A stretch of 64,000 bases of DNA, taken from NCBI GenBank assembly GCA_050739575.1, contig JBOIBN010000003.1:608-64607 (forward strand). Reading direction: 5' to 3'. Shown one piece after another: positions 25,549 through 26,343 of this stretch (positions are counted from its first letter, which is position 1; the number at the start of each line of letters is the position of its first letter). The position numbers and the translations under genes are program-made. The notes under the pieces were generated by a model. The model made no database searches. It had not been told where the DNA came from and saw only the letters and a list, made by a program, of their open reading frames with translations. Origin of the DNA: Gammaproteobacteria bacterium. Its GTDB lineage: Bacteria > Pseudomonadota > Gammaproteobacteria > JAKDMP01.

Positions 25549-26343
25549 TCAGTTTGAGCCGCCGCCGTTCTGGTTCGGACCGATCATTTGTTCGTAGTTC
25601 GGTAACTGGTTGGGGTTGTAGTTCGGCAGGTTCTTGCGGACGGTTTCGTCGCGGTTCTGGAAGTAGGCGTTGCGCATGAAGGCGTAGGGATCGTAGGCCT
25701 GCTCCAGCAATTGATCGAGATTCAGGAATTGCGCGCGGAGCTGAATTGCACCGATGGCGTAGATAAGGTTGCGCGTCCGTGGTTTCCAGCCGGTCCAGAA
25801 GAAGGCCGAGCCGAAGTGATCCACGTAGAGGCCGAAAGCGTCGCGGACATCGCTCGGCCCGAGCAGCGGGATTTGCAGGTACGGCCCGCTCGGCACGCCC
25901 CAGCGCGCAAGCGTGATGCCGAAGTCCTCGCTGTGCGGCGGCATGCCCCAGTCCGAGGCGGGATCGAAGAAACCCGCGAAACCCACCGTCGAGTTGGCGA
26001 AAAAGCGTCCGGTATCGCGCACCGCATCCAGCGGCTTGAGCTGCAGCAGATCGTTGATGACGGTGACCGGCAGGCCGAGATTGCTGAAGAAATTGCCGAT
26101 GCCGGTTTGCACCGGTTTCGGAGTGATCTTCACATAACCCTTGGCCGCAGGTTTGAGCACGGCCGAATCCACCAGATTATTGAAACGGTACACCTCTCGG
26201 TTGGCGGGCGCCAGCGGGTCGCGCTTCTGGGGCGGCACGTTGCCAGGGTTGCCCGGCTTCGTCACACATCCGCAAAGTAGCGTTGTGAAAACCAGCGCGC
26301 AGACGGCGACGGGCCGGAGCAAGCGGTTGTGCCCACGGTTCAT
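25549..26343 (-). CDS. mlaA: outer-membrane lipoprotein MlaA (VacJ)
   Basis: Lipobox LLCGC and VacJ-family similarity (REVYRFNN, GLYVDHFGSAFFWTG). Start ATG 26341-26343 lies 1 nt after the upstream sulfotransferase stop codon (26338-26340). Confidence 0.85.
   Translation of the reverse strand: MNRGHNRLLRPVAVCALVFTTLLCGCVTKPGNPGNVPPQKRDPLAPANREVYRFNNLVDSAVLKPAAKGYVKITPKPVQTGIGNFFSNLGLPVTVINDLLQLKPLDAVRDTGRFFANSTVGFAGFFDPASDWGMPPHSEDFGITLARWGVPSGPYLQIPLLGPSDVRDAFGLYVDHFGSAFFWTGWKPRTRNLIYAIGAIQLRAQFLNLDQLLEQAYDPYAFMRNAYFQNRDETVRKNLPNYNPNQLPNYEQMIGPNQNGGGSN

Follow-up and report, generated by a model that had tools for sequence, protein, structure and literature searches.

Background

Why should mlaA, the gene for an outer-membrane lipoprotein of the Mla phospholipid pathway, stand at the end of an array of sulfotransferase genes, and does this position tell us anything about what the sulfotransferases act on? 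The arrangement is found in an uncultured gammaproteobacterium (assembly GCA_050739575.1, contig JBOIBN010000003.1, positions 608 to 64,607), and the whole of this analysed stretch of 64,000 nucleotides is referred to as the window in the following. The window also matches a contig of the metagenome-assembled genome GCA_974167825.1, which belongs to an uncultured member of the Gammaproteobacteria. As an earlier note on this DNA had stated, mlaA is linked to four sulfotransferase genes; these (ST1 to ST4) lie upstream of it on the same strand, and their products combine tetratricopeptide repeats (TPR) with a Sulfotransfer_3 domain. The explanation which we favour as a whole, with moderate confidence, is that mlaA is the promoter-distal cistron of a clade-specific array of TPR-sulfotransferase genes and that it has kept its ancestral position. 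The mlaA gene, the array and the region in front of it are composed as follows.

25549..26343, minus strand: mlaA, encoding a VacJ/MlaA outer-membrane lipoprotein of 264 aa (PF04333, lipobox Cys26, tail alignment)
26340..26343, minus strand: ATGA junction, in which the ST1 stop codon TGA (26342-26340) lies over the mlaA ATG (26343-26341), from sequence and gene calls
26340..28130, minus strand: ST1, N-terminal TPR and C-terminal sulfotransferase resembling the protein-tyrosine sulfotransferases (TPST), 596 aa, orthogroup C (PF13469, 8e-42; TPST1, structure 5wrj, 2.4e-13)
28177..29910, minus strand: ST2, TPR-sulfotransferase, 577 aa, orthogroup A, overlapping the following gene by 4 nt
29907..30371, minus strand: SseB-like small protein, 154 aa (PF07179, 2.4e-6)
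30462..32234, minus strand: ST3, TPR-sulfotransferase, 590 aa from the first ATG (575 aa from 32189 according to the gene caller)
32238..34073, minus strand: ST4, TPR-sulfotransferase, 611 aa, orthogroup B, first gene of the array
34074..34467, no strand: divergent intergenic region of 394 nt, reaching from ST4 to the gene for a TonB-dependent receptor

Results and Discussion

The junction between ST1 and mlaA

All genes from ST4 to mlaA (34073 down to 25549) lie on one strand and are separated by gaps of at most 90 nt, the remaining gaps within the array being 3-48, 90 and 46 nt. ST1 and mlaA overlap by 4 nt (ATGA; the minus strand at the junction reads ...CGGCAATGAACC), in agreement with an independent gene call on the source contig (8214-10004 and 10001-10795), which is L001 among the lineages compared below. 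The ATG of mlaA had been placed 1 nt after the stop codon of the sulfotransferase gene, which is wrong, since the two codons together occupy the four nucleotides from 26340 to 26343. A Shine-Dalgarno-like motif (AAGGAA) is present at -16 to -11 of the mlaA ATG, inside the 3' end of ST1. Taken alone, this junction is an ordinary one, because overlaps of 4 nt are the commonest junction in operons and because further examples are found in the same window at mlaE/mlaD, at mlaC/mlaB and between the gene of the SseB-like protein and ST2.

A consensus scan, which non-canonical signals would escape, detected neither terminator- nor promoter-like sites in the intergenic gaps of the array or at the junction. 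Terminator-like matches numbered 10 as opposed to 11.4 in shuffled sequence and promoter-like matches 1 as opposed to 2.6; the sole sigma-70-like match (27593-27565) is situated about 1.2 kb upstream of the junction and is at chance level.

The proposal of the earlier note that mlaA is the last gene of the sulfotransferase transcript is in accordance with the common strand, the short gaps and the ATGA, as well as with the clade-wide adjacency and the 4-nt overlap with two sulfotransferase orthogroups that are described in the next section. Judged from these features and well supported by the comparison, mlaA appears to be the last cistron of the sulfotransferase transcription unit, and its translation is probably coupled to that of ST1 at the ATGA.

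Conservation of the arrangement within one clade

Loci containing mlaA were gathered by exact-protein look-ups, by a scan of GTDB species genomes with an MlaA alignment and by a scan of metagenome contigs, and the six-frame open reading frames (ORFs) of the gathered loci were searched with the window proteins. Wherever an MlaA with at least 59% identity was found together with upstream DNA, the sulfotransferase genes were found as well: 12 of 12 lineages (L001, L003, L005, L007, L008, L089, L090, L091, L094, L096, L097 and L171; MlaA identity 59-100%) have mlaA immediately preceded by 2-5 co-oriented genes for TPR-sulfotransferases. Seven further MlaA matches of the clade agree in the length of their longest contig with a match of ST1, which suggests that the two genes may share a contig there as well. 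Further upstream, where the sequence reaches that far, usually the gene for the SseB-like protein and a divergent gene for a TonB-dependent receptor are found. The closest relative outside this clade (L170, MlaA 56% identical) has no adjacent sulfotransferase gene, and none adjoins mlaA in the 117 outgroup loci, each of which includes at least 2 kb of upstream DNA. It is this conservation (12/12 in the clade versus 0/117 in the outgroup), and not the overlap itself, that goes beyond chance.

The distance between the stop codon of the sulfotransferase gene and the start of mlaA varies within the clade. It is -4 nt (ATGA or GTGA) in L001, L005, L007 and L094, with L007 exhibiting the same ATGA plus AAAGGAAAAGG, and L005 and L094 a GTGA. 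Gaps of about 50-105 nt are found in L003, L008, L089, L090 and L097 and gaps of about 175-325 nt in L091, L096 and L171. When the sulfotransferase domains of these lineages, except for L171, were arranged in a neighbour-joining tree, three orthogroups were separated, and the gene abutting mlaA belongs to the C-type (like ST1) in six lineages, to the A-type (like ST2 and ST3) in four and to the B-type in one. Since the overlap of 4 nt is formed with C-type partners (L001 and L007) as well as with A-type partners (L005 and L094), mlaA has remained at the end of an array that underwent remodelling, and the tight junction has formed at least twice. The comparisons are good, though indirect, evidence of co-transcription, and to some degree they also speak for an arrangement that has been kept up and is not fortuitous.

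Individual lineages show further peculiarities. In L005 a fifth-position TPR-sulfotransferase gene (10814-12598, plus strand) is located between mlaA and mlaB, and mlaA is thus internal to the sulfotransferase array. In L007 the orthologue of ST1 (8209-10004) is called as two ORFs of 124 aa and 474 aa, suggesting a frameshift or decay, with the ATGA overlap with mlaA being intact; the array of the same lineage contains an inserted GIY-YIG gene on the opposite strand (3516-3806).

The ancestral position of mlaA

On its other side, mlaA faces the mlaFEDCB unit (22331-25412, plus strand), whose genes were identified by Pfam, NCBIfam and gene calls.

22331-23161, plus strand: mlaF
23161-23952, plus strand: mlaE
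23955-24440, plus strand: mlaD
24427-25080, plus strand: mlaC
25077-25412, plus strand: mlaB/STAS
25413..25548, no strand: spacer of 136 nt between the stop codons of mlaB and mlaA (terminator scan, folding)

The operon is indeed complete and convergent on mlaA, as had been noted before; the spacer, however, measures 136 nt (25413-25548) and not 137 bp. A bidirectional terminator in this spacer was considered and rejected: it contains no canonical site, and the fold z-scores of -1.5 on both strands are not significant.

Among 148 outgroup loci, mlaA is convergent on mlaB/C within 1.5 kb in 81, including Rhodanobacter, Dyella, Frateuria, Dokdonella, Steroidobacteraceae and many metagenome-assembled genomes. 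The remaining loci comprise 15 with mlaA inside an mlaFED-A-C arrangement (mostly of the Burkholderiales type), 2 with mlaA after mlaC, 36 without linkage and 14 that were too short. Judged by these outgroups, the convergence on mlaFEDCB is an inherited position and not a feature of the sulfotransferase locus.

The place directly upstream of mlaA has a different occupant in many outgroup loci, namely a same-strand gene of the BepA architecture (M48 peptidase and TPR) in 37 of 117; 30 of those are convergent. BepA proteins are periplasmic proteases of outer-membrane biogenesis, and we are not aware of a prior description of the bepA-like/mlaA pair, which links two functions of outer-membrane homeostasis. 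Examples of this pair are found in L099 (8386-9915, plus strand), L009, L011, L015, L020, L024, L028, L033, L037, L053 and L102. A BepA-like gene was not found in the 64-kb window (phmmer with the BepA-like protein of L099, E < 1e-10). With either a BepA-like or a sulfotransferase gene ahead of it, mlaA as a rule takes the place of a downstream cistron in this region of the tree.

Other bacteria differ in their layout. In E. coli, mlaA is b2346 and mlaFEDCB b3195-b3191, and in P. aeruginosa mlaA is PA2800 and the operon PA4456-PA4452 (PMC10925693; for P. aeruginosa also PMC10374164); gene numbers as distant as these suggest that mlaA is unlinked from the operon in both species. In S. maltophilia and N. 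gonorrhoeae, all six mla genes form one operon (PMC10925693).

A proposal for the transcription of mlaA

From these observations we regard the mlaA of the window as an ordinary MlaA gene at its ancestral place, tail-to-tail with mlaFEDCB. The slot upstream of it, which in many sister lineages holds the gene for the BepA-like M48/TPR protease, is filled in one uncultured gammaproteobacterial lineage by 2-5 TPR-sulfotransferase genes and the gene for the SseB-like protein, the array constituting one arm of a module with a TonB-dependent receptor, 2-oxoglutarate (2OG) oxygenases and a TPR-beta-hydroxylase. The divergent region 34074-34467 is a likely promoter region for both flanking units, and mlaA would be transcribed as the promoter-distal cistron, most likely from these 394 nt. 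Ribosomes ending ST1 at the ATGA could then reinitiate on mlaA, aided by the AAGGAA located 11 nt upstream. Under this proposal, mlaA would have kept its status as a downstream cistron while the upstream neighbour changed.

There are, however, several points that weigh against this proposal. At 11 nt, the Shine-Dalgarno-like motif is spaced rather widely from the start codon, and an internal promoter may be present in the 3' part of ST1. The wider gaps in eight lineages mean that tight coupling does not extend to the whole clade; in these eight, a separate promoter may serve mlaA. Finally, a linkage that has outlasted changes in copy number and in the abutting orthogroup may point to an association that was selected rather than merely inherited.

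In an alternative that we consider unlikely, the overlap would reflect mere genome compaction, with mlaA being expressed mainly from its own promoter within the 3' end of ST1 and independently of the array. The 50-325 nt between the sulfotransferase gene and mlaA in several members of the clade leave room for a promoter, and mlaA is a housekeeping envelope gene, whereas modules with TonB-dependent receptors are usually expressed conditionally. However, no sigma-70-like site lies near the junction apart from the distant chance-level match mentioned above, and 4-nt overlaps have been re-created with different sulfotransferase partners.

The MlaA protein and its C-terminal tail

The product of mlaA matches PF04333 with an E value of 1.8e-71 and 240 bits (cut-off 25), covering profile positions 2-194 of 195. 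Its lipoprotein signal, read by eye, is MNRGHNRLLRPVAVCALVFTTLLCGC, ending in ...TTLLCGC, and the lipobox Cys26 is invariant in an alignment of 41 homologues. The NCBIfam model NF011672, an equivalog of E. coli MlaA, gives 137 bits against a cut-off of 375, so that the protein belongs to the family, though only as a distant orthologue. Judging by homology and by the adjoining complete mlaFEDCB, it is predicted to act with OmpC/F and MlaC in clearing mislocalised phospholipid from the outer leaflet.

The alignment also revealed a clade-specific C-terminal tail (RKNLPNYNPNQLPNYEQM). In the sulfotransferase-bearing clade its consensus is RKN-LPNYNPNQxP(D/N)YExML, with Y242 and Y250 being invariant (approximately residues 235-264 of the window protein, 25549-25640). 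The motif is confined to this clade and lacking in distant MlaA proteins, although half of it (LPNYNEML) is already there in P0042, the nearest relative without sulfotransferases. It was not found in any other protein of the window. Distant MlaA proteins have long acidic tails instead, some with DY/YDDLYEDF runs.

The sulfotransferases resemble protein-tyrosine sulfotransferases

The four sulfotransferases of the window match Sulfotransfer_3 (PF13469) with E values of 3e-39 to 8e-42. Over a stretch of 300 nt (28209-28508 versus 30488-30787, spacing 2279 nt), ST2 and ST3 are 78% identical in nucleotide sequence, which identifies them as recent tandem paralogues. Across the clade, the gene for the SseB-like protein always precedes an A-type sulfotransferase gene.

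When compared with sequences of the PDB, ST1 matches TPST1 (5wrj) with 2.4e-13, and the TPR region of the O-GlcNAc transferase is among its matches as well. A profile of 13 sulfotransferase domains matches TPST1 at 3.7e-24 (range for TPST1/2 4e-24 to 3e-21), followed by the sulfotransferase of the CurM polyketide synthase at 9e-16, the cytosolic SULTs at about 1e-6 and heparan-sulfate sulfotransferases at 1e-4. Conserved in all 13 aligned domains are PRSG(T/S)TL (5'-phosphosulfate-binding loop, 5'-PSB), VHVRR (3'-phosphate-binding motif, 3'-PB), GGE, TDK and TAS..QVRxP; in ST1 the motifs PRSGTT, GGE, TDK and RRD are present. The GGE aligns with the catalytic Glu of TPST, and the equivalent of Arg101 of TPST2, which reads the acidic residue at -1, is not conserved. 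With the 5'-PSB loop, the 3'-PB motif and the catalytic base all in place, the proteins are, as far as can be judged from their motifs, members of the TPST-like sulfotransferases that depend on 3'-phosphoadenosine 5'-phosphosulfate (PAPS).

By inspection, a signal-peptide-like N-terminus is absent from all four sulfotransferases, from which a cytoplasmic location is predicted; PAPS is a cytoplasmic cofactor. We read the combination of TPR and transferase as pointing to protein or peptide acceptors, as in the O-GlcNAc transferase. The acceptor of these enzymes would most probably be a peptide or protein, or else a product derived from a peptide, and not a membrane lipid.

Homologues of the TPR-sulfotransferases are also found elsewhere and not beside mlaA. 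The gene stands alone in Rhodanobacter koreensis (L168) and in L169, and it is accompanied by a gene for a TPR-methyltransferase in L172. A general association of sulfotransferase genes and mlaA outside the clade was considered and discarded, as these three loci and a fourth distant one, L173, have no mlaA nearby. In L173 (6812-15723), fliC, fliD and fliS follow directly on the distant TPR-sulfotransferase gene, and two methyltransferase genes precede it, a context suggesting that the TPR-sulfotransferase family is used there in modifying flagellin or a flagellin glycan.

The receptor/oxygenase module

The sulfotransferase array is only one half of a larger module, whose receptor/oxygenase half at 34468-43325 had been overlooked in the earlier note. 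The oxygenase genes were identified by a Pfam search of the module.

34468..37476, plus strand: TonB-dependent receptor, 1002 aa (plug and barrel domains; NCBIfam matches partial only)
37718-38941, minus strand: 2OG-FeII_Oxy_3 gene
38841-39620, minus strand: 2OG-FeII_Oxy_5 gene
40160-41548, minus strand: TPR-Asp/Asn beta-hydroxylase gene
41605-42663, minus strand: 352-aa protein without an assigned family
42672-43325, minus strand: 2OG-FeII_Oxy_5 gene
43487..43573, minus strand: tRNA-Leu(CAA), far edge of the module, before guaB/guaA

The receptor gene is divergent from the array, and its position is kept across the clade; homologues of the oxygenase half (37718..43325, minus strand) occupy the same relative position in L005, L097 and L171. 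The module thereby unites bacterial homologues of TPST, ASPH and prolyl-hydroxylase-type enzymes. Neither a substrate gene (collagen-like, glycine-rich or tail-collar) nor a gene for a nonribosomal peptide synthetase (NRPS) or halogenase was detected among the ORFs of 26-43 kb, the intergenic region between ST4 and the receptor gene holds no convincing candidate for a precursor-peptide ORF, and a Pfam search of the ORFs found no lipid- or glycan-synthesis genes in the module. Apart from two tRNAs, no Rfam elements were found in the junction, the spacers or the 394-nt region (two sub-threshold chance matches, E 0.5-0.7).

Inspection by eye of 34325-34360, in front of the receptor gene, showed a TTGCAA-17 nt-TAGGAT-like motif preceded by a T-run, probably the promoter of this gene. 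A similar T-run with TACGAT occurs in L171 (3530-3570, minus strand), the relative with 59% MlaA identity.

The module does not look like a recent island, as att repeats and a compositional anomaly are both lacking. A genomic island at the tRNA-Leu was accordingly rejected (the 3' end of the tRNA is not repeated, att-like direct repeats are absent and the GC content is like that of the flanks), and no integrase domain is among the Pfam matches of the module ORFs. A simple insertion between guaBA and mlaA was ruled out as well, since the outgroup loci have no guaBA upstream of mlaA. The longest ORF of guaB (from 43425) crosses the tRNA-Leu(CAA) on the other strand; its IMPDH domain begins at residue 89, and the true start is probably near 43680.

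Is MlaA functionally linked to the sulfotransferases?

The conservation within the clade could also mean that the linkage has a function. The TPST-like sulfotransferases and the hydroxylases might modify an envelope-bound protein before its export, with MlaA being either the substrate, via its tail LPNYNPNQxP(D/N)YE, or needed in fixed proportion to the product. The linkage was kept in all 12 clade lineages in spite of changes in copy number and orthogroup, mlaA even lies between sulfotransferase genes in L005, and the tight junction was formed with two different sulfotransferase types. In addition, the tail motif with its invariant tyrosines is found only in the sulfotransferase-bearing clade, and its residues Tyr, Asn, Pro and Asp match the enzyme classes encoded nearby. 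These enzymes are homologous to the protein-modifying TPST, ASPH and P4H-type enzymes, TPR domains are usually protein-binding, and there is a precedent in MlaZ, a member of the MlaA family, which works with the product of the directly upstream mlaY (PMC10374164).

However, clade, tail and sulfotransferase array arose once and thus represent a single phylogenetic event instead of independent evidence. Half of the tail motif exists in P0042 without any sulfotransferase, and the motif occurs in no further protein of the window. To our knowledge, there is also no precedent for the sulfation of a lipoprotein exported by Sec and Lol. For these reasons we regard a functional link as quite improbable.

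The more specific version, in which the TPR-sulfotransferases modify the tail LPNYNPNQxPDYE of MlaA itself, possibly after hydroxylation of Asn/Pro by the TPR-beta-hydroxylase and the 2OG oxygenases, appears to us very improbable. The C-terminal tail of E. coli MlaA is reportedly involved in docking MlaC. If the modification were real, MlaA would become the first bacterial lipoprotein of the outer membrane with sulfated tyrosine, and its tail a post-translational control point on the Mla pathway.

The reading of the earlier note, namely action on outer-membrane lipids, which would have the sulfotransferases produce or alter a sulfated lipid or glycolipid of the outer membrane and MlaA co-expressed to handle it, could appeal to the operon linkage with a lipid-trafficking gene beside a complete Mla system, to an NCBIfam match to the Nod-factor sulfotransferase NoeE (1.7e-7, weak and far below the cut-off) and to PF13469-type enzymes with non-protein acceptors such as the CurM sulfotransferase (9e-16), but it is hardly credible, because the best structural relatives are by a wide margin protein-tyrosine sulfotransferases, the enzymes lack a signal-peptide-like N-terminus, peptides or proteins are the substrates suggested by the TPR fusion, the TPR-Asp/Asn hydroxylase and the prolyl-hydroxylase-like 2OG oxygenases (PMC2938197), the module is without lipid- or glycan-synthesis genes, and the homologues elsewhere lie beside flagellin or methyltransferase genes and not beside lipid genes. 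Nor is a lipid role supported by the position of mlaA, since its place beside mlaFEDCB is ancestral, the same slot carries a BepA-like gene in sister lineages and distant TPR-sulfotransferases are not beside mlaA. The account of mlaA as the promoter-distal cistron of a clade-specific array is the one that we retain in the comparison with known systems.

Relation to known systems

With its full set of MlaA and MlaFEDCB and with mlaA beside the mla operon, the locus resembles the Mla layouts of many Proteobacteria (PMC10925693). It differs from them in that mlaA is convergent on mlaB and the apparent last cistron of a non-mla operon, and it is unlike the Burkholderiales, where mlaA is inside mlaFED-A-C. 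The BepA-like/mlaA pair is similar in having a TPR-containing gene on the same strand that ends about 0-100 nt from mlaA and a convergent mlaBCDEF downstream; the upstream gene, however, encodes an M48 and TPR protease, and there is neither a sulfotransferase nor a receptor/oxygenase module.

In mlaYZ of P. aeruginosa, a gene of the MlaA family likewise lies directly downstream of, and in an operon with, a gene for a non-Mla enzyme (PMC10374164). MlaY, however, is a lipase that is exported and works on the very lipids its partner acts on, whereas the sulfotransferases of the window appear to be cytoplasmic. In addition, the MlaA of the window groups with canonical MlaA next to mlaFEDCB and not with MlaZ.

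With human TPST1/2, their best PDB matches, the sulfotransferases of the window share the 5'-PSB (PRSGTT), the 3'-PB and the catalytic Glu (GGE). In contrast to TPST and RaxST, they have about 300 aa of TPR attached to them, and the clade contains 2-5 paralogous copies. RaxST of Xanthomonas is reported to sulfate the RaxX peptide in a bacterium (PMC4646787); a gene for a RaxX-like precursor or genes for a RaxABC-type exporter were not seen in the module of the window.

The closest parallel to the module as a whole is given by the clustered neighbourhoods of 2OG-dioxygenase, beta-hydroxylase, sulfotransferase and TonB-receptor genes described by Iyer, Abhiman, de Souza and Aravind in 2010, for which hydroxylation followed by sulfation of peptides, secreted proteins or siderophore-like metabolites was predicted (PMC2938197). 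The window shows the same clustering of beta-hydroxylase-family and classical 2OG dioxygenases with a sulfotransferase and a TonB-type receptor. When compared with these neighbourhoods, the clade of the window has features of its own in the TPR fusions, the SseB-like partner and the mlaA appended to the array, and the halogenase, SapC and NRPS genes of the neighbourhoods were not found in the module of the window. Neither mlaA nor the Mla system is mentioned in that paper, and a literature search for mlaA, operon and sulfotransferase retrieved no paper.

The locus thus places a known gene in a new operon context, attached to a modification module of a kind already known, and it is a clade-specific variant. 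If the expression of mlaA depends on the sulfotransferase operon, outer-membrane lipid homeostasis would in this lineage be co-regulated with a modification module linked to a TonB-dependent receptor, which would represent a new regulatory context for Mla. The habit of mlaA to be a downstream cistron in a broad set of Gammaproteobacteria bears on the interpretation of mlaA mutants and of polar effects, and the module offers a tractable place to seek bacterial protein sulfation beyond RaxST.

Elsewhere in the window, three tandem genes for ATPases of the T2SSE family (364, 462 and 389 aa; PilT/PilU/PilB-like) are located on the minus strand at 11565-15064.

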